A stretch of DNA of 52,973 bases from a virus. Taxonomy: Duplodnaviria; Caudoviricetes. Below the pieces are notes generated by a model. That model did no database searches and was not told the DNA's origin. It saw only the letters and a list, made by a program, of their open reading frames with translations. The DNA is taken from the IMG/VR virus record IMGVR_UViG_3300046777_001769, positions 1-52,973 of that record. One strand, given 5' to 3'. How positions within the stretch are numbered: position 1 is the stretch's first letter; every line of letters begins with the position of its first letter. This document shows, in pieces, positions 12,743-44,205 of this stretch. A program made the translations under genes and the position numbers.

Positions 12743-12996
12743 TTAGTGGTTTCTCTTGAGTGTTAGCGGGGCGGTGAAGTGTGCCCCTCATACTATTAGG
12801 ACACTTTCAAGGTGAGCTATTTTATCTGATGCGATCCTGAATGTCACTGAGGACCTGTAAGATCACCTCACGACTATCCTCACCGTTCTCCTCTAACTGT
12901 TGCATAACGTCTTGCAGTTGTGGTAGGATAGCGGTGGTTAATTGGGCAACACGTATAATCCTCATATCGCCCAAATGCTTATATTTTAGTGTTCTC

Positions 12997-13045
12997 ATTT
13001 TGTTAACATAAAGACCCGATTATTTATGCTTTATGTTAACAAAAT
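12997..13045. repeat. Perfect 17-bp inverted repeat enclosing a late-promoter core
   Basis: ATTTTGTTAACATAAAG (12997-13013) / CTTTATGTTAACAAAAT (13029-13045); the 15-nt loop contains CATAAATA on the minus strand. Confidence 0.85.
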
Positions 13046-13079
13046 AAAAACGCCTTATATGGTATAAATTGCTACCAAA

Positions 13080-15492: not shown

Positions 15493-15681
15493 TTAACTCA
15501 ACTCGATGTTCCAGTCAACATCTGCAGTAAGATTGACCCAAAAGTGATTCTTACAGTTTGCAGAGGTGAGAAACACTTTGTCTCCGCAATGTTGCTCTAC
15601 AATACATTCCTGATTGCGGTTCATTAAGTTACAGAAACGATTGTGTGCTTTCTTACTTTTGGGTGTTACAAATGCAGTCAT
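15493..15681 (-). CDS. Hypothetical protein, related to 42787-42990
   Basis: V.PKSKKA.NRF.N.M....VEQ.....F..S.N....FW shared; its stop lies inside the repeat. Confidence 0.75.
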   Translation of the reverse strand: MTAFVTPKSKKAHNRFCNLMNRNQECIVEQHCGDKVFLTSANCKNHFWVNLTADVDWNIELS

Positions 15682-28027: not shown

Positions 28028-28564
28028 TTTTATTCGTAAATTACCTCTTAATTGTAGTAGTTTTCGTCGCCTTCGTCAAGATTATTTTGGTCAGCAGCAA
28101 AGATAAATGCTGCACCGATTGTAAGTAGAGAACCCAGTCCCATTCCAAGTAGAAAAGTCATCAATAAAACTCCGCCAAGTAGTAGTCAACGGGAACTTCA
28201 AGTTTAGCTGCTTCCCGTTCAACTTCTTTCCAGAACTCTTCTGCTACTTTGTTCATTTCTGCTTGTTTAATGAGATCACGAAGTTTTTTAGAAATCATTT
28301 TAGTTAAAATGCGATTCGTTTTTTGGTCGAATTACCTTAAAATAGTAGGTAAGTATCAATAATACTAATACTACCAACATAAGGTAGGTAAAGACACCAA
28401 CTGCAAGCGTCATTTAATCTCAGCAGAGGGAGGTTTCTTTAGATTATCTATCGCTTTAGAACGATAGTAGGCATCATAAAGACTTTCATCACGCTGGATT
28501 AGAAAGATATTCCAACCAAGAATGACTGCAAAACCAATCAATCCAGCAACAATGTATTTGCGGT

Positions 28565-28969
28565 TCATTTGTTCATTTGAAGTGTAGGGACAGGCATACC
28601 ACCTTCGGTAGGAACGTAGATCGTCACGTTACCTTTATTAGATCCTTCTTCCAGACCAGTGATGTAAAGATACTGGAGATACTCACGGTTATCTTTCAGA
28701 CTATCACCGATAATTTGGTTTGCTTTGGCAACACCAGTAGCACGGATGATTTCAGCATCAGCAAGTTGCTGAGCACTATCTTTCTTTGCTTGTGCTTCCA
28801 ACACTGCTACCTGTCGGGTATATTCTGCTTTCTGAAGTTCTGCTTTACCAGCAAGAGATTGTTGCCATACGTTGTATTGAGGACCACCAATAAAGAGGAT
28901 ACCACCAATGAAGAACACACCAGCAATAAAGAGAATAGCAGGAGGGTCAATAAATCCGTTTTGTTTCAT
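28565..28969 (-). CDS. Membrane protein with band-7/SPFH-like coiled coil
   Basis: TM helix, then EAQAK..A...ADAEIIRA.GVAKANQIIG.SL...YLQY. Confidence 0.7.
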   Translation of the reverse strand: MKQNGFIDPPAILFIAGVFFIGGILFIGGPQYNVWQQSLAGKAELQKAEYTRQVAVLEAQAKKDSAQQLADAEIIRATGVAKANQIIGDSLKDNREYLQYLYITGLEEGSNKGNVTIYVPTEGGMPVPTLQMNK

Positions 28970-31863: not shown

Positions 31864-32592
31864 TTAGTTAATTCTAATTCGTAAAGAGGTATCAATACCT
31901 CTATAATTTTGGTAGTTTGATAATCCACCTGGAGTTGATATATGTCCAGTCACAAGACATTTCCATCTTTGTGCCGCAACTTTTTTACCTGCTTTTTTTG
32001 AGACCTCTTTTCTTTCTTCTTCAGTTAAAGAAAAACAACCTTTTTTTAAAAGATACGATTTTTCTCCACCTTTTCTTCCAACTTCACTTTTCTGCTCCGC
32101 ATTATATGCGAATATACCTTTTCTCTTTTCAATATTTTCTCTTAATGTTTTTTTGCCCAACTGTTGAATATGTCCCGTTTCCACATTTACAATTCCACCC
32201 ATTTTTCCAAATTTACTTCTTTGTTCGGATGTGAGTGAAAATATTCCTGTATTATTTTCACGGTGTTTTTTTCCAGTAACACTACCTCCAATTTTTCCCG
32301 CTTTACTACAAGTATCTAATGAAAAAAATCCGCCACAATTTGCGTTTAAACACCATTTATCAGTATTATAAACTGGTTTTATCAATCTTCTCTCAATTTT
32401 AGAAGCATCCTCACGACTACTAAAAGTTTCTAATATCTGTTTCTTTGGCGTATAGAGTTCCCAACACCATTTGTTTGTTATAGGAGAACCCCAATATTCC
32501 TCATCATACACTTTTTCTTCGTGTATTCCATAATAGTAATAAGGAACCTCTTCAAAGGTAATTTTATATGTGTATATTCTTGGAGAATACAT
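31864..32592 (-). CDS. GIY-YIG-like (Seg-type) homing endonuclease
   Basis: IYTYKITF....YYYGIH......YWGS, E.RLI, LN; repeated G.KGG modules in the C-terminal half. Confidence 0.75.
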   Translation of the reverse strand: MYSPRIYTYKITFEEVPYYYYGIHEEKVYDEEYWGSPITNKWCWELYTPKKQILETFSSREDASKIERRLIKPVYNTDKWCLNANCGGFFSLDTCSKAGKIGGSVTGKKHRENNTGIFSLTSEQRSKFGKMGGIVNVETGHIQQLGKKTLRENIEKRKGIFAYNAEQKSEVGRKGGEKSYLLKKGCFSLTEEERKEVSKKAGKKVAAQRWKCLVTGHISTPGGLSNYQNYRGIDTSLRIRIN

Positions 32593-32631
32593 AACTCTGC
32601 TCTTTAGTTGACTGCATTAATATTTATAATG

Positions 32632-32688
32632 CAAAGGAGAGGATTTCTCCTCTCCAACCTGTAGAGATTGCAGTCAACTTCAGGCATC
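32632..32688 (-). ncRNA. Candidate ~55-nt small RNA antisense to the nuclease leader (copy 1)
   Basis: AATAAATA (32691-32698), CCTG-AAGTTGACTGCAATCTCTA-CAGG, hairpin GGAGAGGA-GAAA-TCCTCTCC-TTT, then TATAAATA (32621-32628). Confidence 0.55.
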
Positions 32689-32981
32689 ATTATTTATTCA
32701 TAATGACTTAGTTGCCTCCGCAATTCTACTTTTGTGCTGATCAAATTTCTATATAAAAATTTTTGATACTCATTACCTTCCAAGAGTTTTGTAAGATTAT
32801 CAATCTGCATTAGAGCAAGAATGAGTTTTGTTTTATTATCCATTGCTATTCAATTTTTGAATATATTCATCAATTGCGTTAATAAAGTCTTCTTCGGTCC
32901 AGTCGTTGAAAATACTTTCCTCAGGAGAATTCTCATCCCAGGAGATAGTGAGCGATCCGTCTTCATTTTCAGTTACCTGTA

Positions 32982-33299
32982 TCATTTTTTAGACTTTGTA
33001 GAGCGAGCAGTGTTTCTAGTGGAATCCACGCTGGGTTTTCTTTTGCGAACTGCACTTGTACTTCCGTCACTTTTTGGTTTAGGTTTTTGTTCCACACTTC
33101 TCGTGTGTTTTTTACTGGGCTCAGGGGGTTTTCCATCACGATAATCAATTTTAAGAGTTCTCTTATCCAGTTTATACCTTTCTAGATATTTGTCAAGGTG
33201 TTCCTGACACTCAAACCAACAGACTGTACTGTTTTTCTTTTCACCAAACTCAAGTCTATATCCAAACTTTTCATATGGAAATAGTTCAGTAGAAATCAT
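32982..33299 (-). CDS. Hypothetical protein
   Basis: FPYEKFGYRLE...CWFECQEHLDKYLERYKL. Confidence 0.7.
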   Translation of the reverse strand: MISTELFPYEKFGYRLEFGEKKNSTVCWFECQEHLDKYLERYKLDKRTLKIDYRDGKPPEPSKKHTRSVEQKPKPKSDGSTSAVRKRKPSVDSTRNTARSTKSKK

Positions 33300-33682
33300 C
33301 GCGTTATGTGTTCAAAATCTTGTACTTTTCCGTGCTTAAAATGTATCATACATCTAGGCCAATCTTCCCACTCCCCATCCCAAGTTGCTGGATAAACTTC
33401 CACATAATCAGTCACATAGCAGGGTTCTACCTTACCATGTTTTCCTGTTGGTATCCACTCAAAGTTAAAAATTTTTCTTTTTGGGTCTGTTTCATAACGC
33501 TCATCATCCTCTTTGATATCTTCAAAAGTATGAGTTTCTCTATGAGTGATTTCATACAAGCATCCATCAGGTGCAATCCAATAACTACACATTGCACAAG
33601 CAAGTCCTTTAGTTTGCATTGGTACATTAGTGAATTGTTCTCCCAAATCATAAGAAGAACGAATGTCGTCATATAGTCCCAT
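33296..33682 (-). CDS. Phage hypothetical protein
   Basis: MGLYDDI...QTKGL...YWI.PDG.L...F.HGK. Confidence 0.75.
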   Translation of the reverse strand: MGLYDDIRSSYDLGEQFTNVPMQTKGLACAMCSYWIAPDGCLYEITHRETHTFEDIKEDDERYETDPKRKIFNFEWIPTGKHGKVEPCYVTDYVEVYPATWDGEWEDWPRCMIHFKHGKVQDFEHITR

Positions 33683-33823
33683 TATTTTTCTCCAAGTTTA
33701 ACAGGAAACTCTTCATCACTCAAATCATCATGCAGTAATTTAGCAAAGATTTCATATGCGGGTTGCCTTGTTTCAATCGCAGAAGATGTGGCAACAGTCC
33801 ACATAATCCTCAACTGAAACTTA

Positions 33824-34177
33824 TCAGGTAAGGTCTTCATCAGGTAACCTCTCATTCAAATCTACTTCAATATCACCAACAAGGTCATCAAGTTTATCAA
33901 TCATATCTTGCGTGAATGGAACTGTTTCCACTTTACCACTCATCACATCATCAGCAAGTTTTCGTATGTGTTCAAGAAAACCTTTATCTAAGGTATCATC
34001 ATAACACAGTGACCCCCAGAACCATTCATAACATTCTTCATAAGGGTCATCATACCACATAAGAGCATAATCCTTATAGTTTCCAGTCATCAAGTCCCGC
34101 CAGATGCGAAAATTACCTCCGATTGTTTGGAACCAGGATGGAATTAAATATGTGAAAATGTATTCAAGCCAAGTCAT
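33824..34177 (-). CDS. Hypothetical protein
   Basis: 117-aa ORF in a tightly packed run. Confidence 0.7.
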   Translation of the reverse strand: MTWLEYIFTYLIPSWFQTIGGNFRIWRDLMTGNYKDYALMWYDDPYEECYEWFWGSLCYDDTLDKGFLEHIRKLADDVMSGKVETVPFTQDMIDKLDDLVGDIEVDLNERLPDEDLT

Positions 34178-34359
34178 TAGAGGTAATGCGGTTTTTCTGA
34201 ATCAAAAACATACCACTTTGCGTCTTTCATATCAAGACACATTCGTACAGTTTCGTGCTCTCTGTGTTCTCTATCTGTGCCTTTGTATAAGGTTCGTCTT
34301 TGGTAAGCATTACACCAGACATTATAGTAGATTTTAGATTTCTCGTTCATTTGGGACAA
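34177..34359 (-). CDS. Hypothetical protein
   Basis: 60 aa, coupled to neighbours. Confidence 0.6.
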   Translation of the reverse strand: MSQMNEKSKIYYNVWCNAYQRRTLYKGTDREHREHETVRMCLDMKDAKWYVFDSEKPHYL

Positions 34360-34610
34360 TATAGGAAGTATTTGTATTCAGCAAGTGTTCCATAATGCCA
34401 CTGAATTATATCACAGTCTTTATAGGTTCCAACCACCTTAGTATCCTGTTTAGTGTCCTGTTTAGTATCTGGCACACTATCTCCCCATGAGATGAAAGAT
34501 ATGATAAGAATTATAATACCAACAGTAGAAATGATAAATGCAAATCCACGCATAAACTCTCTAAGTGCTTTTTTATCATCTTCAATCATTTTCTGTCCCC
34601 CAAAGTTCAT
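34347..34610 (-). CDS. Membrane protein
   Basis: TM helix; DTKQ tandem repeat. Confidence 0.65.
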   Translation of the reverse strand: MNFGGQKMIEDDKKALREFMRGFAFIISTVGIIILIISFISWGDSVPDTKQDTKQDTKVVGTYKDCDIIQWHYGTLAEYKYFLYCPK

Positions 34611-34947
34611 CCCAAGGTGCTGGTTTATTCATAATTTCCCTAAGCCTTTCTACTTTCTTAGGGTCTGGTGGATTATTGATTGCTTCCATCAGAGTATTAT
34701 ATGCTTCTTCTGAAACATAAATGACTGGTGGTTTTTGGTCTAACCTCAATTTTCGTTCGGGTGAAATAGTGATGTTGTAAGCATCATCATAAGGATAGAT
34801 ATATTCCATATACCATCCTAGGGATAAACCTTCCCAAAACTCATCGTATCCCCATTCATCACCATCATTATAACAATCCAGACAGTTCCAGAAGTTATGG
34901 AAACCATCAAGAAAAAGTTCAAGTTTTGTTGGATTTTCAAACCTCAT
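34582..34947 (-). CDS. Hypothetical protein
   Basis: 121 aa; ATGA overlap. Confidence 0.7.
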   Translation of the reverse strand: MRFENPTKLELFLDGFHNFWNCLDCYNDGDEWGYDEFWEGLSLGWYMEYIYPYDDAYNITISPERKLRLDQKPPVIYVSEEAYNTLMEAINNPPDPKKVERLREIMNKPAPWDELWGTEND

Positions 34948-35129
34948 GGTGTCTCATCGCTCCAATAATAACGTAGTTTATCGCCATCAGCAGAAATGTT
35001 CAGGTGATAGATTTTATCATCTTCGGTATACACACCAATCCAAAGTGTGCGTTCATTCATACTTTCCAGGTGAAACATTTGAATGTCTTGAAGCACAATC
35101 TCATCAGGGTTTTCAGTAAATCTACTCAT
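34944..35129 (-). CDS. Hypothetical protein
   Basis: 61 aa, FHLESM....WIG. Confidence 0.65.
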   Translation of the reverse strand: MSRFTENPDEIVLQDIQMFHLESMNERTLWIGVYTEDDKIYHLNISADGDKLRYYWSDETP

Positions 35130-35274
35130 TCTGCATCCTCATAAGCTTCCTGAACCATCTCTGCGATTTCCATTATTTCTGCCTTAAATTTTGGTGTTGA
35201 TGTCTTTGAGACCTCATCATAGAACAGAGTAAGGGCAGTCGTCAATAGAACCAGTTGGCGTTTTGTGAAGTCCA

Positions 35275-36114
35275 TTATGAGAAGTTATAGTGAACACGAG
35301 TGTAGAAATCTTTGAAACAACTCTTATTGAGGAGCTTCATCATCGCTGGAGGAATGTAGTATGAATATTCACTGAAGAAGTCTTCTTTACTGAGAAATCT
35401 GAGACCATGAAGATACCAAGTACCAAACTGCTCGTGGAATGCTCTCACAGCACGATATTGTTTAGAGTTAACAGGCACATACTTATTCTCGCCACTAAAG
35501 TCATCACCATATGGAGTTGCTTGTGTCATCATAACACACACAGTTTGACCTTCACCAGTGCCGAAGTATTCGGAAACCATATACACCCAGTGTTCATCTA
35601 CTGGAAATACATCACGATGATACTTCTGCTCATATTCTTTCATACAAGCATCAGCAACCAGTTGAAAGTTTTCTTTCTTCTTTGCTTGTAGTTCTTCAAT
35701 CAGTTCTTCATGTTCAATCTTACGAAGTTCTTTAAGATCATCGGAATACTTGTCGATACCAGCAATAGCAGTTTGAATTGCTTGTAAATTCATTTTTTCA
35801 AGTAGTTCCTCTCTTTCAATCGCAGCAAGTTCTTTTAGAGCATCACCATTTTCAGCATAGAGTTTTTCTACTGCTTCCCATGCTTTGTTCACTGCCTCTC
35901 TTTTTTCAGCAATTTCCAACATTTCTTCGTGCGTAAGATTTTCAAGAACAAGGTCTTTTGCAGCATCTTCCATTTTTTTCATATCCTGTTTGTAGATAAG
36001 TTCTTTCAACCTCTGTTTACCATATTCCGTTAATTCGTGTTTTTTGTTGCGGAGTTCTTCTACTTCCTCTTGTGTGAGATTGACCCACGGCATATCTTCA
36101 TTCATCGTTCCCAA
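35275..36114 (-). CDS. Hypothetical protein with coiled-coil N-terminal half
   Basis: 279-aa ORF. Confidence 0.75.
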   Translation of the reverse strand: MGTMNEDMPWVNLTQEEVEELRNKKHELTEYGKQRLKELIYKQDMKKMEDAAKDLVLENLTHEEMLEIAEKREAVNKAWEAVEKLYAENGDALKELAAIEREELLEKMNLQAIQTAIAGIDKYSDDLKELRKIEHEELIEELQAKKKENFQLVADACMKEYEQKYHRDVFPVDEHWVYMVSEYFGTGEGQTVCVMMTQATPYGDDFSGENKYVPVNSKQYRAVRAFHEQFGTWYLHGLRFLSKEDFFSEYSYYIPPAMMKLLNKSCFKDFYTRVHYNFS

Positions 36115-36284
36115 GCATAAGATTTTAGAAATTCATTATCTCTTTCAAGTGTTTCAATTTTATCATACAAATCATCAATAATTTCAATCAAGGCATCATA
36201 ATCAATCGTTTCAATTGTTCTACCATCCTCCATATCCTCATAGTAGGAATATTGGAGTTGTTGTTTTAAGTTTCGTTTAGTCAT
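36102..36284 (-). CDS. Hypothetical protein
   Basis: 60 aa; ATGA overlap. Confidence 0.6.
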   Translation of the reverse strand: MTKRNLKQQLQYSYYEDMEDGRTIETIDYDALIEIIDDLYDKIETLERDNEFLKSYAWER

Positions 36285-37006
36285 CGTTTGTTCCTCAATT
36301 TAGATTTGATTTTGGTGAGGCAGTCATTATAACCATCCACAAGGTCAATTACAGAAACATTCTGGGTTCCTTCGTGTGATTGCTCACGAGGAAGCCAAAG
36401 TTGTATCTGGTCTATAAGGTCATCAATCGCAGTTTTCATATCCCAATCTTCTCTTGTTGTGAATACATCACACCACCAACGAGTAATGAGTTCTTCCAGA
36501 GTTTTACCCATTTCAAACTTCAAAAAGTCTGGTGGATTTTCCTCCCACTTCTTCAGCATTTTATTCACAACTTCATCAGTGATACGATAAGGAGGATTAT
36601 CTTTCTCATCCCACTCTACTTCATCATACTCGGGAGGGTCATCAACTGGAACTGCTTTTGGTTGTGTTGATTGATAACCACGAAGAAAAGCATCCCACTT
36701 TGCATTTTCACTTGAAGTACTACCTGAAGGATATTCCCCATAACATCTTTTGTATGCTTCCTCTGCTGGTGATTTTTGTTTAGGATAAGCATCTTTGAGT
36801 TTATCAAAAAACTCTTTTGTTTCTTCACAATATTCAACATACTTATCAAGCATGTGAAATTCGTCAAGTGTGAGTTCAAGTGTGAATTTTTCAGTCATTT
36901 TAATTTCAAGTTGAGTTTCAGGACATTTGGTTCCAAGAGTTGGAGGAGTTGGAGGAGAAATACGAAATGTTTCCTCACCATTTTTGTAGTAGATTATATC
37001 ACTCAT
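36281..37006 (-). CDS. Hypothetical protein
   Basis: 241-aa ORF. Confidence 0.75.
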   Translation of the reverse strand: MSDIIYYKNGEETFRISPPTPPTLGTKCPETQLEIKMTEKFTLELTLDEFHMLDKYVEYCEETKEFFDKLKDAYPKQKSPAEEAYKRCYGEYPSGSTSSENAKWDAFLRGYQSTQPKAVPVDDPPEYDEVEWDEKDNPPYRITDEVVNKMLKKWEENPPDFLKFEMGKTLEELITRWWCDVFTTREDWDMKTAIDDLIDQIQLWLPREQSHEGTQNVSVIDLVDGYNDCLTKIKSKLRNKR

Positions 37007-37250
37007 TATCAGTAAGTCCTACTTCCTCTTCCAGTTTAGCATAGTTTGCCGCTTCCCAACCAGCCACAAAAGATGCGTGTATCCAACCATATAGAACATC
37101 TTCACGGGTCTTTTCGTCTTCTACTTTACAGTCCCCATAAAACCATTCTGAACGAAAAGTATAAGGACTATAAAAGTCATTAAACCACTTTACAAAAGCA
37201 TCCTCTGCTTCATCGTGAAAGTTCCAGTTGTTGGTTGGATGTTTAGTCAT
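36999..37250 (-). CDS. Hypothetical protein
   Basis: MTKHPTNNWNF portion of ORF-track 36999-37340. Confidence 0.6.
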   Translation of the reverse strand: MTKHPTNNWNFHDEAEDAFVKWFNDFYSPYTFRSEWFYGDCKVEDEKTREDVLYGWIHASFVAGWEAANYAKLEEEVGLTDNE

Positions 37251-37425
37251 AAGGTTGCTGTGGGTCTTTCTTCCAGATATCAGTATAGCACAACCATCGC
37301 TCTTCGTGTGGCGACATTTCTGCTGTCCAATGATATCCATTCATATCAATCGCATCAAGATAATGAATGCGTGTCTTTGGGTCAATCACTCGTGTGATAC
37401 TTTTGAATTTTACTCGTTCAGTCAT
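37243..37425 (-). CDS. Hypothetical protein
   Basis: 60 aa; overlapping start and stop. Confidence 0.65.
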   Translation of the reverse strand: MTERVKFKSITRVIDPKTRIHYLDAIDMNGYHWTAEMSPHEERWLCYTDIWKKDPQQPYD

Positions 37426-37645
37426 TTTCTTTCATACAAGGGTATTCAAACTTTTCACCAATACATTCTAACATAGTGCGGGCAAAGGTAATCTCACCAT
37501 AAGCACAACCATCTTCAAAGGCATCATCATAACTACCAGCACTTGGAGTATAATCATCTCCAAATAGACCTTCATAGCAGTGTTTTACCTCTGCTACTTC
37601 TTTGAGAACCTTGAGGAGAAGTGTGAGTTTTTCTTCGTTAGTCAT
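37418..37645 (-). CDS. Hypothetical protein
   Basis: 75 aa. Confidence 0.65.
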   Translation of the reverse strand: MTNEEKLTLLLKVLKEVAEVKHCYEGLFGDDYTPSAGSYDDAFEDGCAYGEITFARTMLECIGEKFEYPCMKEND

Positions 37646-37971
37646 TTTACTCCAAGTTGTTTGAGTTCGTCTTCAGTTAGATTAGCAAGGTCTTTCTTGA
37701 GTTGTTGAAGTTTTCGTTCCTTTGCTTTTGCTTTCTCTTCCTTTTCTTTCTCCAGTTGTTTTACTCGTTTATTATACTCTTTGTCGTTTTCTTCCCGATG
37801 CTTGTAGAGATAATACTCTACAACACCATCATAATCAACATATTCAATATCAATACCTTCCCAACCAGCATCTAATTCTGCTTGAAGTGAAGAAATAATA
37901 CTTTCAAGAGTTCCTTCAAAATTTTCCCAATACCTTTGAGTTTCTTTGACTTGAATTCGTTTGATAGTCAT
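37642..37971 (-). CDS. Hypothetical protein
   Basis: 109 aa, charged C-terminus. Confidence 0.7.
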   Translation of the reverse strand: MTIKRIQVKETQRYWENFEGTLESIISSLQAELDAGWEGIDIEYVDYDGVVEYYLYKHREENDKEYNKRVKQLEKEKEEKAKAKERKLQQLKKDLANLTEDELKQLGVK

Positions 37972-38183
37972 TTCAGTTCCTCCAGTTCATTCGCAAGTGC
38001 CTCCAATTCATCAGCATTCACAAAAGCATTTCCATAATCATCAACATACTTGAGTTCTTCTACAACTTTACGAAGAGTAGCAACAGCAATTACATTTGGA
38101 TGAGATGGTTCCATATCACCCCAGTCCCACCACACTTGATGAATAGCATCTGCGACTGCTTGTGCCTCTTTAGTCATTTTCAT
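37968..38183 (-). CDS. Hypothetical protein
   Basis: 71 aa; resembles 38598 and 39649 ORFs. Confidence 0.65.
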   Translation of the reverse strand: MKMTKEAQAVADAIHQVWWDWGDMEPSHPNVIAVATLRKVVEELKYVDDYGNAFVNADELEALANELEELK

Positions 38184-38184
38184 T

Positions 38185-38415
38185 TCATTCCCCTTTCAAT
38201 TGACGGATTTCACTTTCCAGTTCGTAAATGCGGTTATTCATTTCTTTGAGAAACATAATCAACGAACGACTACAAATGGTTTCTCCATTATCTTCTGAAA
38301 GATCTGAGATAAGTACAGTCATTCCAACACCGTGAGAAAACATTTCTTTTGCGTATTCTTTGGGATATTGAATGCTATAAGACATATCTGGAATAGTTTT
38401 TTCAAAGAGGGTCAT
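38185..38415 (-). CDS. Hypothetical protein
   Basis: MTLFEKTIP portion of ORF-track 38185-38454, behind a promoter element. Confidence 0.6.
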   Translation of the reverse strand: MTLFEKTIPDMSYSIQYPKEYAKEMFSHGVGMTVLISDLSEDNGETICSRSLIMFLKEMNNRIYELESEIRQLKGE

Positions 38416-38440
38416 AAGAGGTGTCTGTGTGTATGAGAGT

Positions 38441-38498
38441 ATCATACCACCCACAGAACCCCACAGAGCATCCCCTGTTCCAGTTCGTCAAGTGTCCT
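38441..38498 (-). promoter_or_regulatory. Early promoter element with dyad box
   Basis: GGACACTT-GACG-AACTGGAAC ... TGGTATGAT. Confidence 0.6.
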
Positions 38499-38597
38499 CA
38501 AAACCTATTCACATAAACCTCAAAGGTTATTTTGTTCCACTCATTATATCCATTTCCATACTCATACTGGATACTTGTTGTGCTCTGTTTTTTGTAC

Positions 38598-38831
38598 TCA
38601 TAATGCCTCCACTTCATCAGCAATTTCACGCAACACAGATACGGGGTCTTCAAGTTCACCCCAATCGGTGCAAAGACGGTCTGCGGCAGAACGGAGAACG
38701 GCAGCAACGACTCTCTGCCTATCCCCACTTTTAGGACGCAGAGTGAATTCCATAGTAGCATCTACAATTTCTTGTGCTCTAGTTGTCACTATTCCTCCTA
38801 TACCAACTAAGGTCTCTTGGTTTTGTATCAA
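38598..38831 (-). CDS. Hypothetical protein (TTRAQE family)
   Basis: TTRAQE...VAAVL..AA shared with 39649-39843. Confidence 0.65.
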   Translation of the reverse strand: MIQNQETLVGIGGIVTTRAQEIVDATMEFTLRPKSGDRQRVVAAVLRSAADRLCTDWGELEDPVSVLREIADEVEAL

Positions 38832-39048
38832 TTATACTACAATCAAATTGAAATCGTTTGTATCGTATAAAACCCCCAAACAAATGACTTGAACCAATAC
38901 TTAACTGAATTGCTGGGAGTAAATCATCACATCCATAATCATCCCACTGGACTGTAATATCAAGTAGAGCAAACTTTTGGAATCTAAGGACTTGGAAAAA
39001 CCATTCCTTTCCAAAATCCTCATAAGTTTCATAATCAAAGAGTTTCAT
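38779..39048 (-). CDS. Hypothetical protein, paralog of 39380-39652
   Basis: DFGKEWF...DDYG...QLSIG...F.FD. Confidence 0.7.
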   Translation of the reverse strand: MKLFDYETYEDFGKEWFFQVLRFQKFALLDITVQWDDYGCDDLLPAIQLSIGSSHLFGGFIRYKRFQFDCSIIDTKPRDLSWYRRNSDN

Positions 39049-39383
39049 ACTCCGTCTCCAGTTTCATTCCACTCATCCATACGAGTAGCAAGGTCTTCAC
39101 ACTCTTTCCAGTGTTTCTCCACTTCTTTTACACGCCACATAAAACTATCCTCTCCGTGGTCTCCACTATACAGATAATCAATATGCCTCATGATCTCTGC
39201 CATCTTACGCATCTTGAGAAGTTGTTTCCTCAAATACTTGAGAGTTTCTGGTGAAAAATTGGGAGCATACTCATAGTCATCTAGTTTTTTGTTGTTGTTT
39301 TGGATTTCTACTTCCAACTCATCAGCAAACTGTGCTACCTTGTAGTAATCGTAACCACAGTTGCCAAAATGTCCGCCGCTCAT
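39045..39383 (-). CDS. Phage hypothetical protein
   Basis: MSGGHF...IDYLYSGDHGEDSF. Confidence 0.75.
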   Translation of the reverse strand: MSGGHFGNCGYDYYKVAQFADELEVEIQNNNKKLDDYEYAPNFSPETLKYLRKQLLKMRKMAEIMRHIDYLYSGDHGEDSFMWRVKEVEKHWKECEDLATRMDEWNETGDGV

Positions 39384-39652
39384 GCTACTTGACTCCCAGA
39401 ATCATAAAACAACTCATCACGCCAGTTACGACCAGCAATATCAAAAGTGAAACCCACTCGTCCAATAGAGAATAGAACTGATAAGAGTCTACCGTACCCC
39501 ATACTCATTTGAAAATAAGGACATTCAATCCACTTACCATATTCACCATAATCAATGGCAGCCTGAAGAAGTGAATATCGTTTTCCAGTACAAAGAGTCA
39601 TATAATACTCTTTTCCATAATCGTTTCTTACACCAAACTGAATTATCTTCAT
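39380..39652 (-). CDS. Hypothetical protein, paralog of 38779-39048
   Basis: DYGKEYY...GEYG...QMSMG...FTFD. Confidence 0.7.
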   Translation of the reverse strand: MKIIQFGVRNDYGKEYYMTLCTGKRYSLLQAAIDYGEYGKWIECPYFQMSMGYGRLLSVLFSIGRVGFTFDIAGRNWRDELFYDSGSQVA

Positions 39653-39843
39653 TGGTTTAGTTCCTCTGCGAGTTGTAGCATATCGCTTTTATCCAGAACA
39701 ATCCTACCGTCTTGTGCATTATAAGATTGAATATTTTCTGCAGCAATAAAAAGAATTGCTGCCACAAGCTTCTCTTCAGTATCGGCACCATTATTTCGAT
39801 GTTCCCATACTGCATTCATAAACTCTTGTGCTCTAGTAGTCAT
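39649..39843 (-). CDS. Hypothetical protein (TTRAQE family)
   Basis: 64 aa. Confidence 0.65.
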   Translation of the reverse strand: MTTRAQEFMNAVWEHRNNGADTEEKLVAAILFIAAENIQSYNAQDGRIVLDKSDMLQLAEELNQ

Positions 39844-40391
39844 TGTACTTTACCGTGAATATGACAATCAGCATTAACCCACTTGCGTTCTTCGGGCATT
39901 TCTTCATTATCCATTACAGGACACTTGCAACCTTTTTCAACTGCTTCAGGAGATCCAGGAACAACACCATTCCATTCTTGATAAGTCATCGCATCCATTT
40001 CCTCATCAGTATATTGAGGATTATCAGGTTGTTCAAGACGTGACAGTTTTGCTTTTAGGTCATAAATTTCATCCTGCATCTCACGAAATTCTTTAGAATA
40101 TTCTTCAGAAAGTTTGAGTTCAAACTCTTCAGCAACCTTTTTCATTTCTTCTTCACTACGCATATCATTAAATGCAAGCGAACAAGCACCTTTCATAATA
40201 CCGATTTCATTGTGCCCCATTGTGCGGGCAACAGTTCCAAAGAAACGGAAGAGTTGAATGGTGTTAATGTCTTCGCAGGGAATCTCAAAAGTATAATGCT
40301 CTTCTGGAAGAGTTTCATCATCATAGATTCCAGATGAATAACTTGGAGTCCATTCGGTATCAAAAGAAACTTTGAGGCGTGCTTTGTACAT
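39840..40391 (-). CDS. Hypothetical protein with C-terminal Cys/His motif
   Basis: PGSPEAVEKGCKCPVMDN...CHIHG. Confidence 0.75.
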   Translation of the reverse strand: MYKARLKVSFDTEWTPSYSSGIYDDETLPEEHYTFEIPCEDINTIQLFRFFGTVARTMGHNEIGIMKGACSLAFNDMRSEEEMKKVAEEFELKLSEEYSKEFREMQDEIYDLKAKLSRLEQPDNPQYTDEEMDAMTYQEWNGVVPGSPEAVEKGCKCPVMDNEEMPEERKWVNADCHIHGKVQ

Positions 40392-40413
40392 AGTGAAGGT
40401 GTTTCAATACAGA

Positions 40414-40471
40414 TACTATAAAACCCTTGACTGCGAAAGTCAAGGGTCAGTGGACAGTTCAAAAACTGTAC
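40414..40471 (-). promoter_or_regulatory. Stem-loop early promoter element
   Basis: GTACAGTT-TTTG-AACTGTCCAC, 25-bp hairpin ACCCTTGACT-N5-AGTCAAGGGT, TATAGT. Confidence 0.75.
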
Positions 40472-40950
40472 TCTTGCCACTCATCAATAGAAGTATTACT
40501 TAAGACAAACTGCATTTTATTATAAGGTGCTCTCGGTTTTCTTATTAGTTTCATACCAGTTTGTTCTAAAAAAGTATGACCTTTTTTAGTATTACAAGAA
40601 CTACAGGCAACTACAAGATTTTCCCAAGTATCTTCACCCCCACGACATCTTGGAATAACGTGGTCAATCGTAAGTCTTTTTGTTGCACCACAATACTGAC
40701 AAGTATGATTATCTCTTTTATAAATCATTGCTCTTGATGGTTTTTGAGCAATAATTTTAGAAAGAGGGACTTTCACATAATCCAAAAGACGAATAACACG
40801 ATTTGATAGAACTTGTGCTTTCTCTTTTAGAAGTAAAACAATTGCTCTTTTCCAGCTTGTAATATTAAGAGGTTCAAAAGAAGAATTTAATACTAAAACT
40901 GTTGTATTTGGTTGTATTTCAATTTTAGTCATACCTTTTAAGAGGTTCAC
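40459..40950 (-). CDS. HNH endonuclease
   Basis: LVLN...PL, RDNHTCQYCG, LTIDHVIPR.RGG.DTWENLV.ACSSCNTKKG. Confidence 0.92.
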   Translation of the reverse strand: MNLLKGMTKIEIQPNTTVLVLNSSFEPLNITSWKRAIVLLLKEKAQVLSNRVIRLLDYVKVPLSKIIAQKPSRAMIYKRDNHTCQYCGATKRLTIDHVIPRCRGGEDTWENLVVACSSCNTKKGHTFLEQTGMKLIRKPRAPYNKMQFVLSNTSIDEWQEYSF

Positions 40951-40951
40951 A

Positions 40952-41170
40952 TTAATATCTATAGCAAGGAACTCTTACTCTTTCTCTCCAATATCTCACG
41001 TATCCAGGGTTCAATCTGTCACCAGGAACATATTCTTCGCGATAAACAATTTCAGTGCATATTGGTTCTCTATAATAAACTCTTGGTTCAAAAGGTTCCC
41101 AAAACTCTTTCCAAGTTATGGCATTTGCAGGAAGAGTGATAAATGGTAGAAGTAAAAGAAAATATTTCAT
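40952..41170 (-). CDS. Small exported protein
   Basis: Signal peptide-like MKYFLLLLPFITLPANA. Confidence 0.7.
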   Translation of the reverse strand: MKYFLLLLPFITLPANAITWKEFWEPFEPRVYYREPICTEIVYREEYVPGDRLNPGYVRYWRERVRVPCYRY

Positions 41171-41487
41171 CAGTCACGTTGTCTCCAATCGTCTGGTTTA
41201 TCTCCAGTGAAGAAATCAATAATATCATCAGCACCATTAAATCCAGTGCGATGATTTGATGGATCTGGATCACCTAAATCCAATGCGTTCATAAAGTCAT
41301 CTAAACTTCCTTCTTGCATATCAGGATTTGCAGCGCGGCGTCTTGCTTGTCTCAAAAGTGTTGCAGCACTTCGATTTGCTTTTGCAAGTTTTTCTGCCCA
41401 TATCATTTCTGACAGTTCAACACTTTCACCTTTTACAATCTTATTACAAATCTCTTCTAATCTCAACCGATACTGCGTGGAGAGCAT
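41170..41487 (-). CDS. Phage hypothetical protein
   Basis: MLSTQYRLRLE.IC.KI...MIWAEKLAKAN...DWRQRD. Confidence 0.8.
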   Translation of the reverse strand: MLSTQYRLRLEEICNKIVKGESVELSEMIWAEKLAKANRSAATLLRQARRRAANPDMQEGSLDDFMNALDLGDPDPSNHRTGFNGADDIIDFFTGDKPDDWRQRD

Positions 41488-41507
41488 ATGTATTATTCAG
41501 ATAATGA

Positions 41508-41747
41508 TTATTTATTTCTTGATTCTAACTCTTTCATTAACTCCTTTGCAAGTTGATTTGAGCGTTTCCACATCAAATACTTTACAATAGGATTTGCTGG
41601 ATTATGAACAATCCACCACTTTGTCTTTTCGTATTGAACTCTTGCTAGTTGAGTGAGCATATAAAATGCCCTCGCTACGGATTGATCAGTAACAATCAAG
41701 TAAGCAATACAAAAGAAAATCGTAAGATATATGTATGTAGAACTCAT
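41508..41747 (-). CDS. Small membrane protein
   Basis: N-terminal hydrophobic helix. Confidence 0.7.
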   Translation of the reverse strand: MSSTYIYLTIFFCIAYLIVTDQSVARAFYMLTQLARVQYEKTKWWIVHNPANPIVKYLMWKRSNQLAKELMKELESRNK

Positions 41748-42128
41748 TGCCTCAGTGTTTTGATATACTGTAATACTTGTTCACGAACTGCCATGAGTTC
41801 ATTGTAACACTTTTGATTGTGAGCACAGTTACGAAGTTCAGGATCAGGTTTCAATACACTTTCCTCAAAAAGAGTTAGTCCTCGATTCCATTTGTCAATT
41901 TGAGTTTCTTCAGTCATTTTTTACTACTTTAACGGGACAAGAGGGGACAACTTTTCGGATTTCGTGAATGATTTCAGTTCTTTGAAGTTCGGTCAATCCT
42001 ACAACTTTAGTAAGACGATGAATTAAATTCAATGCATCGCTGCAGCTGATAATGGTTGCAGTGAGAAGTACAACCATAGTTTTCTCCTATTCTACTACTA
42101 TTTAAGGTAGTTCATAAAATGTTAATAA

Positions 42129-42500
42129 TTAGTCCCAACTCACGTTTTCTAAAAGAACTCCAGGCATCACTATTGTCCAACCTGTCCCACCCATTTTATA
42201 TTCCCATTTGTATTCATATTTGTTGTGACTATCCCAAGTTACAAATCCCTTTTCTTTATCAAAACGCGATTTAATAGTTAGTGCAAAGCGATTAGAAAAG
42301 ATATTACGAGTACGTAGAGCACCATTCGGTTCTCGTGTCTCAATCACTACACAAGTATCATCATAAAATTCTTGATCTTTTTCAATTCCACATGCAGTTT
42401 CATAGCGGAATGGACGATATGTTTCCTGTGCAAAAACAGGAGAAGAAAAGAACAGTGCAGCAAGAACAATCAGTTTTTTCATCCAACAACCCTCCAACAA
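42129..42500 (-). CDS. Exported protein
   Basis: Signal peptide-like MKKLIVLAALFFSSPVFA. Confidence 0.7.
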   Translation of the reverse strand: MLEGCWMKKLIVLAALFFSSPVFAQETYRPFRYETACGIEKDQEFYDDTCVVIETREPNGALRTRNIFSNRFALTIKSRFDKEKGFVTWDSHNKYEYKWEYKMGGTGWTIVMPGVLLENVSWD

Positions 42501-42790
42501 ACGACAGCGTTACCTTTTTTTACAGACTGAATGTGTGCAAAAGCAGCATAAGACAAATCTAGATCAGCATGAGAATACGGTCCGCGATCATTAACACGAA
42601 CGATAACTTGTTTGCCGTTATCTTGATTGGTTACCCGTATGCGTGAACCCATAGGTAGATAAGGATGAGCTGCAGTCCAAGAATAAGCATCAAACCGCTC
42701 ACCGTTCGCAGTAACTTTTCCATGAAATCCGTCTCCTACTCCATAATATGTAGAAATTCCACAAGTCAGTGCAGCAATCAATCCAATCAT
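42479..42790 (-). CDS. rlpA: RlpA-family (double-psi beta-barrel) lytic transglycosylase
   Basis: YYG...FHGKVTANGERFD...TAAHPYLPMGS.IRVTN..NGK.V.VRVNDRGPY...DLS.AAF. Confidence 0.9.
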   Translation of the reverse strand: MIGLIAALTCGISTYYGVGDGFHGKVTANGERFDAYSWTAAHPYLPMGSRIRVTNQDNGKQVIVRVNDRGPYSHADLDLSYAAFAHIQSVKKGNAVVCWRVVG

Positions 42791-42990
42791 TTAATCACCT
42801 CCCAATGAGGGTCGTTCTGTTTATTCATCCAAAAGCAGTAACGACGATTGATAGAAACAACAAAGAACTGCGTGTCATTTTCTTGTTCCACTTCCATTGC
42901 GTGAAGAGAATCCATAATGTTTTTAAAACGATTGACTGCTTTCTTAGATTTTGGTTGAACGTTGATGAGTTTTTTCTTGGTTTTCATCAT
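42787..42990 (-). CDS. Hypothetical protein, related to 15493-15681
   Basis: VQPKSKKAVNRFKNIM...VEQ...FW. Confidence 0.7.
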   Translation of the reverse strand: MMKTKKKLINVQPKSKKAVNRFKNIMDSLHAMEVEQENDTQFFVVSINRRYCFWMNKQNDPHWEVIK

Positions 42991-43017
42991 TTTTTCATTT
43001 ACTTAGTAATCATAGCA

Positions 43018-43215
43018 CTAATTTTTCTCTTCGGGACTTTGATGTGACACTTTTTTAAGTGGTTTAACAACGTTATGCCAGTACCATTTACTATATTCGT
43101 TTCTTTTTTCTTTATTTTGATCCCTACCACGTTTCCATAACTCTTTTAGATAATCTTTATTTTCTTCTTTCCATTTTTTAATTTTATTTTGATTGTTTGC
43201 TCTCCATTCTTTCAT
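43018..43215 (-). CDS. Basic repeat-like ORF, possible frameshifted tail of the GIY-YIG nuclease
   Basis: KEWRANN..KKWKEENKD; in the -1 frame, overlapping the nuclease stop. Confidence 0.55.
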   Translation of the reverse strand: MKEWRANNQNKIKKWKEENKDYLKELWKRGRDQNKEKRNEYSKWYWHNVVKPLKKVSHQSPEEKN

Positions 43216-43631
43216 ATATTCTTTTTTCTTTTTGCCTCTCTTTTTTCTTCTTCTGTAAAATATTTTTTATTATGTCTGATATCAGTTCTATTTTTAGCAG
43301 CAATACTTTGTTTCTTTTTTGTTTCTTCTGATGGACTAAATCCTCTCACTCCTTCACCACCTACTGTAGAGTTATATCCATTATTGTAAGTGTCATAATA
43401 ATCAATATAAAAAATTTCCTGTTCATTTAAAAAATTAACATCATATTCTTCTATAATTCCATAGATAAACAAACTCCATCCATATTTTCTCACAGCACGA
43501 TAAAATTTATTATCAATACCTTTTTTACAATGTAGTTTATGTTGCGCCTTTCTTTTTCTTTCAACTATTGTTTGCCCTATGTATTTTTTACCCGTAGGAA
43601 TACAATGATAGCAGTAAATTACTCCTTTCAT
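43212..43631 (-). CDS. GIY-YIG homing endonuclease
   Basis: MKGVIYCY.....KKYIGQT...R, FYRAVRKYGW, E.FYI, GYN.T.GG, SEETKKK.S (NUMOD3-like); ATG at 43631 preferred over TTG at 43652. Confidence 0.88.
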   Translation of the reverse strand: MKGVIYCYHCIPTGKKYIGQTIVERKRKAQHKLHCKKGIDNKFYRAVRKYGWSLFIYGIIEEYDVNFLNEQEIFYIDYYDTYNNGYNSTVGGEGVRGFSPSEETKKKQSIAAKNRTDIRHNKKYFTEEEKREAKRKKNI

Positions 43632-43665
43632 TTCTACTCTATTGAACCGCAAAAATATTTATATT

Positions 43666-43717
43666 AAAAAGGAGGGACTTTCACCCTCCTCCTGAAGATT
43701 GCGGTTCAACAGGTAAT
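43666..43717 (-). ncRNA. Candidate ~50-nt small RNA antisense to the nuclease leader (copy 2)
   Basis: CTAAATA (43720-43726), CCTG-TTGAACCGCAATCTT-CAGG, hairpin GGAGGG-TGAAAGT-CCCTCC-TTTTT, then TATAAATA (43656-43663). Confidence 0.55.
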
Positions 43718-43779
43718 AGTATTTAGAGTATCTTTAATATATTCTTTTCAACCTCCACAAAGGTCATTGTACAGAGTTA

Positions 43780-44205
43780 TCAGAGTGATGTCAAGTAGTC
43801 AAGATACTCATTAAAGAGTACTTCTTCCATTTGGAATGCTTGATGTTCCCAGGGTTGATCTTCATAGTCCGTCTGAGAGAAGTCTATGCCCCTCCAGTAC
43901 CTCTTTCCATACTTATCCTTTAGAGCACCCATAACGTGCTGATAAACGTGCCAGAGTTCGTGCAGGAGGGTTCTGGTGTAATGGTCAACATCCATTCGAT
44001 TGTGTAATTCAATCTCAAAGGATCTTGGACGATAATCACAATCAGCAACTCCTACCCAACCATAAACACCATCTCTCAACATTCCACGATGATTAACTAC
44101 AATTTCAAGTTTGTGCTTAGGTAAGTGCTTGTCAATAAACCAAGTTACAATGTCCTCACAACGACGCTTGCTATAGTTGTACCCACTGATGTATAATGTA
44201 AGCAT
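43780..44205 (-). CDS. HExxH zinc metallopeptidase-like protein
   Basis: TLLHELWHVYQH ... PWEHQA. Confidence 0.75.
   Translation of the reverse strand: MLTLYISGYNYSKRRCEDIVTWFIDKHLPKHKLEIVVNHRGMLRDGVYGWVGVADCDYRPRSFEIELHNRMDVDHYTRTLLHELWHVYQHVMGALKDKYGKRYWRGIDFSQTDYEDQPWEHQAFQMEEVLFNEYLDYLTSL

Follow-up and report, generated by a model that had tools for sequence, protein, structure and literature searches.

The stretch of DNA analysed here, hereafter the window, comprises all 52,973 nucleotides of the IMG/VR virus record IMGVR_UViG_3300046777_001769 (Duplodnaviria; Caudoviricetes), and it carries on its minus strand two elements of about 105 bases, each immediately upstream of a gene for a putative homing endonuclease. 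We found that these elements are two copies of one 100-120 nt cassette, which runs from a late-promoter-like motif (NNTAAATA; P1) through a 6-nt spacer, a 5' hairpin with an anti-leader arm, an intrinsic terminator and an inner late-promoter motif (TATAAATA; P2) to a leader and the ATG. In silico, this anatomy is conserved in a large family, the arm-leader helix and the terminator covary, the arms are specific for their own leaders, and the cassettes are linked to nuclease genes. The elements are thus likely to be conserved, portable expression-control cassettes for the homing-endonuclease genes of T4-like, mostly freshwater cyanomyoviruses. Their best-supported function, which we consider probable, is to silence upstream and read-through transcripts in cis while the nuclease is expressed late from P2.

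All features that a sequence-only reading of this DNA had described in the two elements were found at the same minus-strand coordinates and in the same order. In element 1, P1 (AATAAATA, 32698-32691) overlaps the TAA stop (32696-32694) of a 49-aa upstream open reading frame (ORF; 32694..32843), which ends inside the motif. After the 6-nt spacer comes the 5' hairpin (GCCUG...CAGGU, 32685-32657; CCTG at 32684-32681, CAGG at 32661-32658), which encloses the arm, the exact 11-mer AGTTGACTGCA at 32679-32669. It is followed by a terminator-like hairpin, GGAGAGGA-GAAA-TCCTCTCC (32655-32636, with TTT to 32633), whose 8 pairs, GNRA-type GAAA loop and trailing TTT were also picked up by a terminator scan, and then by P2 (TATAAATA, 32628-32621; predicted start G32615). 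The leader (32593..32616) holds the target of the arm, TGCAGTCAACT, at 32616-32606, 13 nt before the nuclease 1 ATG at 32592. A transcript begun at the predicted P1 start, G32685, and ended after the terminator would be a short RNA of 53 nt (32685-32633).

Element 2 aligns with element 1 at a mean column identity of 77% and repeats this order. Its P1 motif (TCTAAATA, 43727-43720) differs at a single base from the cyanophage consensus in the literature, NATAAATA, and its 5' hairpin (CCUG...CAGG, 43714..43691, stem 43713-43691; CCTG at 43713-43710, CAGG at 43694-43691) contains the arm TTGAACCGCAA at 43709-43699. The terminator-like hairpin (AGGAGGG-UGAAAGU-CCCUCCU with a U run, TTTTT; 43690-43666) would close a predicted short RNA of 49 nt (43714-43666, from the predicted P1 start A43714). 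P2 (TATAAATA, 43663-43656; predicted start G43650) and a leader (43632..43652) with the target TTGCGGTTCAA at 43652-43642 complete the element, 10 nt before the nuclease 2 ATG at 43631. By analogy with the spacing in T4, we take the P2 start to lie on the G of the conserved TGC that opens the target. The complementarity between arm and leader had been described as an exact 11-nt match; the matches are exact, but pairing does not stop at 11 nt and extends over the ribosome-binding region, running in the element 1 read-through fold past the 11-mer over AAAGAGCAGAG to the AUG and in that of element 2 over AUAGAGUAG.

The proteins encoded downstream had both been taken for GIY-YIG nucleases, a label that suits the second better than the first. 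Nuclease 2 (43212..43631, minus strand, 139 aa) is a GIY-YIG-type homing endonuclease that matches phrog_314 (E 4.8e-21), phrog_5123, annotated 'homing endonuclease with GIY-YIG motif' (E 6.6e-18), and phrog_7168, as well as Pfam PF01541 at E 4.5e-4 and 20.9 bits, under the curated cut-off of 22.6 bits. For nuclease 1 (31864..32592, minus strand, 242 aa), phrog_314 ('homing endonuclease') is matched at E 1e-9, in the part of the profile that nuclease 2 also covers; the protein's GIY-YIG-like N-terminus, IYxYxI...YYYYG, is invariant in 41 relatives. It has no match in Pfam, and a profile of its relatives searched against PDB sequences found none there; since there is no Pfam match and only the phrog_314 match at this E-value, the GIY-YIG label is probable for nuclease 1. 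An AlphaFold model gives its N-terminal domain at low confidence (mean pLDDT 68.3). Its cultured relatives are hypothetical proteins of the freshwater Synechococcus phages S-SRM01 (47%) and B3/B23 (42%), with S-SRM01 gp091 and S-PM2p181 among its homologs; the relatives are Kyanoviridae. We rejected nuclease 1 as a homolog of F-CphI, since the match in S-PM2 is a hypothetical ORF beside F-CphI.

To define the cassette more broadly we gathered 101 distinct copies from IMG/VR contigs and cultured freshwater cyanophages. A broad pattern scan of IMG/VR returned mostly noise (117 loci, 5 with a downstream late motif, 4 genuine cassettes), and each of the four copies it yielded has a different arm, matched to its own leader. 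Among relatives of nuclease 1, 71 loci were fetched, of which 69 extend far enough upstream; adding the two elements of the window and the four loci from the pattern scan gave 75 upstream regions for parsing with regular expressions. The full cassette (NNTAAATA, 54-77 nt, NNTAAATA, a leader of 22-30 nt, ATG) was present in 72 of the 75, with P2 an exact TATAAATA in 69 of those 72, and the three regions that failed to parse were recovered by the covariance model described below: one without P1 (L125), one degenerate (L184) and one with a mis-called start (L119). For relatives of nuclease 2, a cassette abutted the ATG in 38/38 loci with best-segment identities of 43-81% (L205-L242) and in 0/21 of the weaker or partial matches (L243-L263).

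A covariance model built on an unfitted MAFFT alignment, an approach that the sequence-only reading had proposed, recovered the 101 cassettes, which co-occur with nuclease genes. Applied to whole records, it detected six cassettes in S-SRM01 (NC_070963.1; 48433-48538, 51247-51350, 55959-56061, 62406-62517, 192421-192522 and 17953-18055), three in B3, and three and one in two complete-looking IMG/VR genomes. It gave no match in the marine phages S-PM2, S-B05, MA10 and P-SSM2, and in Syn9 only a weak one (E 0.06), at which complementary arms were absent on inspection. In S-B05 (MK799832.1; locus L264, 1270-1360) we observed a simpler hairpin before a nuclease-1 homolog, which the model does not detect: a CAGGGGT arm complementary to an ACCCCTG leader, with TATAAATA between them and no TAAATA upstream. 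Cassettes also occur in clusters, with three within 3.6 kb in L181 (129-238, 1384-1491 and 3494-3593) and pairs of them in the stretches retrieved for L116, L132, L161 and L222, which suggests tandem arrays of homing-nuclease genes.

Searches for earlier descriptions returned little. No near-identical DNA turned up for either locus among cultured phages, and Rfam 15 gave 0 matches at gathering score over the whole window; with the threshold relaxed to E 1, the interval 32400-43950 matched nothing but an unrelated snoRNA model (36295-36389); the comparison with Rfam that had been suggested thus connects neither element with a curated RNA family. Our literature searches turned up the cis hairpin type and CfrI (both discussed below), and no description of the cassette, the terminator-in-loop form, the upstream motif or the small RNA, though related motifs may appear in Supplementary Figure S4 of PMC2677866; the words 'promoter', 'terminator' and 'small RNA' do not occur in the S-SRM01 paper.

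Covariation of arm and leader, which had been claimed from the two window elements, is borne out in the family. RNAalifold, applied to the unfitted MAFFT alignment of 61 cassettes, returned the long-range arm-leader helix, with compensatory changes in 11 of its 12 pairs. For this helix and the terminator together, 89.3% of the cells in the same alignment are paired, compared with 69.7% in column shuffles (0/500 as high) and 34-52% in slid controls. Cells changed on both sides number 247, against 80.9 in the shuffles, and such changes affect 17 of 21 pairs overall and 5 of the 7 pairs of the terminator stem. Near the ribosome-binding region, the pair of columns 15/127 is CG in 41 cassettes and UA in 20, with none broken, and that of columns 16/125 is CG in 48 and UA in 10, with 3 broken. 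In the model-fitted alignment of all 101 cassettes, which leans toward the structure, 96.4% of cells are paired and 21/21 pairs have both-side changes. Many pairs in this alignment are G-U (for example GU:36 at pair 15/183), which fits RNA of this strand only and points to selection on it.

The arms are, moreover, matched to their own leaders. Pairing of an arm with its own leader has a mean predicted energy of -23.8 kcal/mol, compared with -11.0 for other leaders and -8.7 for shuffled arms. In 39 of 61 cases no leader pairs better with an arm than its own, and in the others just 1-3 leaders outrank it. Altogether, the 101 cassettes contain 56 distinct arm strings.

Across the four large phage records, an ORF directly follows the cassette in 13/13 cases. 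Seven of these ORFs have a nuclease-type Pfam or PHROG match, comprising NUMOD3-repeat GIY-like, Endo VII/HNH-like (phrog_1035, 7.4e-10) and HNH-type (phrog_655, 3.8e-27) proteins, and the other six, for which no Pfam family matched, open with the conserved N-terminal motif of nuclease 1. Among 17 representative downstream ORFs, 14 match PHROGs annotated as homing, HNH or Endo VII endonucleases; of the remaining three, two run off the end of their locus and the third finds no match beyond a PHROG of unknown function. Homing-endonuclease-like genes from at least four PHROG families are thus found behind cassettes. Furthermore, 99 pairs of cassettes share at least 90% identity, and in 13 of these pairs the downstream proteins are less than 35% identical (for L130 and L194 the figures are 99% and 23%), which implies that cassette and nuclease gene reassort and agrees with the portable module that had been surmised from the two window copies. 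No listed contig joint skips either nuclease cassette, so no empty site was found; one DNA contig joint, from 32568 to 43656 (side 20), probably reflects the similarity of the two cassettes.

Cassettes also mark genes whose annotation points elsewhere. Of the six homing-nuclease-like genes that cassettes mark in S-SRM01, gp091 carries the label 'hypothetical protein', and gp114, which encodes a NUMOD3-repeat protein, that of 'translation initiation factor 2'. For gp075 and gp297 of the same phage, the annotated start falls inside the cassette, upstream of the ATG that it predicts.

An inverted repeat of 11 nt is in itself unremarkable in this DNA, since 35 inverted pairs of at least 10 nt lie within 150 nt of one another in the window. 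A repeat search lists both arm/leader pairs among its inverted repeats (I20, 11 nt, 100%; I9, 14 nt, 93%). What is remarkable is the combination of features. The predicted read-through RNA of element 1 folds at -44.8 kcal/mol (z -6.06) and that of element 2 at -42.2 kcal/mol (z -5.23), with 0/200 shuffles equal in either case, and both folds are dominated by the arm-leader helix, which reaches over the purine-rich stretch before the AUG. The motif TATAAATA occurs only four times in the window, always on the minus strand, and two of these occurrences are the P2 motifs of elements 1 and 2; the scaffold CCTG-N5-14-GCAATCT occurs twice, against 0.20 expected; and the covariance model, run on the window at E up to 10, returns exactly the two elements.

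These observations suggest how the cassette might work. The arm, just upstream of the terminator, would pair with the leader from the P2 start site to the ribosome-binding region. Transcripts arriving from upstream would mostly be halted at the terminator, and in those that read through, the arm would fold onto the leader and block translation. With TATAAATA situated between the two arms, late transcripts begun there would lack the 5' arm and would be the sole translatable ones, so that the nuclease would be made only late and at a low level. We infer from sequence features the use of the motifs as promoters, the termination at the hairpin and the translational block by pairing.

Several points weigh against this account. 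The leader has no canonical Shine-Dalgarno sequence and the paired motif varies (AGAG, AAAG, AGAA), so that sequestration of the ribosome-binding site is argued from position (-9 to -30). A terminator in the loop would already limit read-through, which makes a pure cis lock partly redundant. The 5' hairpin competes with the long-range helix, and the core mechanism alone leaves both this hairpin and the conserved P1 motif unexplained. Generality is limited, because three of four marine cyanomyoviruses (S-PM2, MA10 and P-SSM2) gave no match and the fourth, Syn9, only a weak one that is not a cassette. Lastly, two RNA runs were found, X20 (share 0.06) and X21 (0.00); X20, mapped alongside three DNA runs, provides contigs only, with depth 0 over 31934-32867, below 1 over element 2 and no listed starts or ends, and is silent on transcripts.

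Other sites in the window recall parts of this arrangement. At 12991-13051 (minus strand) lies a 23-bp hairpin (-26.4 kcal/mol, z -6.76, 0/200 shuffles equal) with CATAAATA in its loop, whose 3' arm holds the AUG of a 58-aa non-nuclease ORF of unknown family (12822..12998). It has the classical, plain T4-type form, with neither a terminator nor a second upstream motif, and suggests that the same late-promoter-in-hairpin logic is used elsewhere in this phage. A third TATAAATA (26847-26840, minus strand) comes after a small ACTCAA/TTGAGT hairpin and 22 nt before an ATG, with a 6-nt CTTGAG/CTCAAG complementarity to codons 3-5 that may be due to chance. About 50 nt upstream of element 2, at 43794-43766 (minus strand), is the best sigma-70-like match of a 16-kb scan (TTGACA-17-TACAAT, 11/12), in which such matches were overall not above shuffles (56 vs 50.5 expected); early transcription from this site, if it occurs, would lead directly into the arm and terminator of element 2.

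Could the two elements simply be unrelated intergenic regions, each with a terminator and a late promoter, that look alike by chance? Inverted repeats of 10-11 nt within 150 nt are indeed frequent here (the 35 pairs above), and Syn9 offers an example of a late motif, a terminator and another late motif without complementary arms. The recovery of 101 distinct homologous cassettes with one model (E-values down to 5.5e-14), the restriction of its matches in the window to elements 1 and 2, and the shuffle and slide controls of the folds and the covariation test speak otherwise; on these grounds we regard coincidence as refuted, with a vanishingly small chance of being right. A second alternative accepts the homology and denies the RNA function: the hairpin would merely terminate the upstream unit, TATAAATA would merely be the promoter of the nuclease gene, and the arm-leader match would be a by-product of a DNA palindrome. 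Such a palindrome could be a protein operator, as in the autorepression of I-TevI, which a review describes as acting through a DNA operator that overlaps the late promoter (PMC2988022), or a junction for recombination or homing, with which the reassortment of cassettes among nucleases would agree; the boundary of the cassette also coincides with gene ends. Yet arms differ among genes with near-identical nuclease N-termini and the same arm type precedes unrelated nucleases, and this independence of arm and nuclease type makes a nuclease-specific operator unlikely. Moreover, pairing is preserved through G-U pairs, whose counterparts in DNA and on the opposite strand do not match, both-side changes affect 17/21 pairs of the unfitted alignment, and the helix always ends at the ribosome-binding region. 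We therefore give the palindrome only a slim chance.

A further possibility, compatible with the cis lock, is that P1 is an active late promoter and that the 5' hairpin and terminator delimit a stable RNA of 49 or 53 nt, which would present the anti-leader in its loop and repress the nuclease in trans as an allele-specific, antitoxin-like regulator. The upstream motif is strikingly uniform. Each position of its TAAATA core is kept in 99-101 of the 101 cassettes; its first base is free and its second is A in 82 and C in 19, including element 2, and the published cyanomyovirus late consensus NATAAATA is fitted in 82/101. A constant 6 nt separates the motif from the hairpin; position -1 is T in 98/101, and the predicted +1 is a purine in 101/101. 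Part of this conservation may be coding punctuation, because the long ORF upstream has its stop codon within P1 or the spacer in 54 of 93 cassettes (30 at the TAA of NNTAAATA, 23 four bases later) and 1-2 nt ahead of P1 in 15 more. A pure stop-codon role is nevertheless disfavoured: the middle A, which no stop codon needs, is kept in 100/101, while only 80/101 have an A directly behind the 8-mer, where the second stop codon requires one. P1 is also intact where the upstream ORF ends elsewhere.

The 5' hairpin, too, is a conserved feature. It begins at nt 1-3 in 99/99 folds of the inter-promoter segment, with a median of 8 pairs and -5.7 kcal/mol, and its stem covaries modestly (85.4% paired vs 81.3% in shuffles of the unfitted alignment; 26 both-side-changed cells vs 14.1, 0/500 as high; on alignment A4, 80.7% vs 74.7%, with slid controls at 9-54%). 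Its 5' strand matches both its local partner and the leader, in three-way sets such as GCCU-CAGG-AGAGC, GCUU-AAGC-AAAGC and GUCU-(G/A)GAC-AGAAU. The P1 motif, this covarying hairpin and the terminator together predict a discrete RNA, of 48-62 nt over 61 folds, which would pair with the late mRNA at a median net gain of -14.0 kcal/mol (99 cassettes). For the window, cognate pairs are predicted at -16.6 and -15.1 kcal/mol, compared with -6.2 and -4.1 for the crossed ones, and the six S-SRM01 cassettes are mutually orthogonal in the same calculation (-12.6 to -15.7 on the diagonal, 0 to -8.5 off it). The 5' end of the element 1 late mRNA is predicted to be unpaired.

We weigh these predictions as follows. 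The invariance of P1 with its fixed spacing and initiating purine, the covarying 5'-terminal hairpin, the three-way match and the favourable, cognate-specific predicted pairing all argue for a regulator acting in trans. Against it, P1 has never been under the pressure to be TATAAATA that P2 shows, as the 19 cassettes with C at the second base attest, and the neighbour's stop falls inside P1 or the spacer, or within 2 nt before, in the 54 and 15 cassettes just mentioned. The natural variant L125 keeps the rest of the cassette without P1, and the arm, TATAAATA and leader hairpin of S-B05 likewise lacks P1; compensated drift in a mechanism that works in cis alone can also produce orthogonal arms; the 5' hairpin could simply shield the arm from variable upstream sequence; and X20, with contigs only, has depth 0 across element 1 and its surroundings (31934-32867). 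Since the cis logic known from T4 explains the arms, the terminator and the inner promoter, a trans-acting RNA is not needed for these. The discrete 50-55 nt RNA that had been proposed is supported indirectly, by the predicted lengths of 53 and 49 nt, the conserved TAAATA core and the covarying terminator, and the upstream motif proves to double as a stop codon in 54/93. On balance we regard production of the short RNA as a reasonably probable addition to the cassette, outside its core, and its repression in trans, like the trans-acting regulator as a whole, as a possibility towards which we lean somewhat less than away.

Should this possibility be realised, every homing-nuclease cassette in the lineage might encode a late, trans-acting anti-leader RNA that serves as an allele-specific antidote and caps nuclease translation, a generalisation that we hold to be rather doubtful. 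Selection on the pairing of RNA and nuclease would then account for the 56 arm strings, the six orthogonal S-SRM01 pairs and the way cassettes reassort among nuclease families. In a bolder extension, the same RNA would silence the nuclease of the same allele in a co-infecting phage. Two other ideas about the arm were dropped. Pairing of AAUCU loop bases with an AGAUU after the hairpin was set aside on finding by eye that AGAUU occurs without AAUCU, for example in L137. A guide RNA, with the arm matching an external DNA target, was likewise rejected: arm 1 occurs nowhere else in the window, and arm 2 (4 matches vs 0.94 expected, with as many in 1/100 shuffles) has two further single-mismatch copies (ATGAACCGCAA; 15614-15624 and 28558-28568, minus strand), in sense orientation and in apparent coding sequence, which were judged to be chance.

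Homing endonucleases are selfish and can endanger the genome in which they reside, and their restraint is known from a handful of T4-family cases. To the known type the cassette adds a terminator of its own, a 5' hairpin that covaries and, upstream, a late-promoter motif that hardly varies. One homologous, mobile control cassette is common to at least four endonuclease families, with more than 50 covarying 'address' alleles and up to six copies in one genome, and its sharing and reassortment imply that control elements travel as units apart from the nuclease genes. The family offers a natural, ready-made set of orthogonal leader/anti-leader pairs, and the covariance model flags homing-nuclease genes that are mislabelled or 'hypothetical', such as S-SRM01 gp091 and gp114. 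If the small RNA exists, it would be, as far as our literature searches show, the first small-RNA antidote for homing endonucleases, and a cultured test system is at hand in S-SRM01 on Synechococcus sp. KCZYC6.

Among known systems, type I toxin-antitoxin loci have an antisense or divergent gene arrangement and a small toxic (membrane) peptide as the target, and StxS is reportedly a short regulatory RNA made by early termination. Like a type I antitoxin, the short RNA, if made, would have its own promoter and terminator and pair with the mRNA leader of an adjacent, potentially harmful protein. It would differ in that its target is a nuclease of 139-361 aa in place of a small membrane peptide, in that RNA gene and target gene follow one another on one strand, and in that neither a stability difference nor addiction logic is implied. 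Closer to the present phages, CfrI, an antisense RNA of ~225 nt, connects psbA with the F-CphI gene in cyanophage S-PM2, according to the report that also gives NATAAATA as the cyanomyovirus late-promoter consensus (PMC2984593). Both CfrI and the proposed RNA are non-coding RNAs of cyanomyoviruses that are tied to a homing endonuclease gene and suspected of a regulatory role. CfrI is annotated in NC_006820 on the opposite strand, overlapping coding sequences, whereas the RNA proposed here would lie upstream on the same strand and owe its complementarity to an inverted repeat, and S-PM2 has no match to the cassette model.

A nearer parallel comes from environmental sequences. Dassa et al. (2009; PMC2677866) reported hairpins before free-standing endonuclease genes at 'fractured gene' loci in metagenomes from the ocean and Lake Gatun; 10 of 15 contain TATAAATA, and two of their conserved motifs are mutually complementary. 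Those loci resemble ours in being environmental and cyanophage-like, with hairpins before GIY-YIG and Vsr-like endonucleases. The text of that paper mentions no terminator in the loop, second upstream motif, 5' hairpin, covariation analysis or small RNA, and some of its hairpins (Figure 4A and Supplementary Figure S4) may belong to the cassette family.

The closest likeness is to T4 itself. For I-TevI, I-TevII, I-TevIII, segB and mobE of Aeh1, a stable structure is described that hides the ribosome-binding site when transcription starts at promoters further upstream; a late promoter lies within this structure, its own transcripts are unable to form it, and in some cases terminators serve as an extra control (PMC2988022). 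By analogy, the core of the cassette can be read as the logic of I-TevI, segB and mobE with parts added. Like those systems, it serves homing endonuclease genes of T4-like phages, its upstream sequence is predicted, with the backing of covariation, to pair with the translation initiation region, and a late-promoter motif, TATAAATA, lies between the arms. The T4 cases, as that review presents them, are individual, simple hairpins (PMC2988022). The cassette differs in holding a complete intrinsic terminator in its loop and in setting the 5' arm within a covarying hairpin of its own, with a second late-type motif 6 nt before it, and a single homologous form recurs across nuclease families, with many arm alleles and up to six copies per genome.

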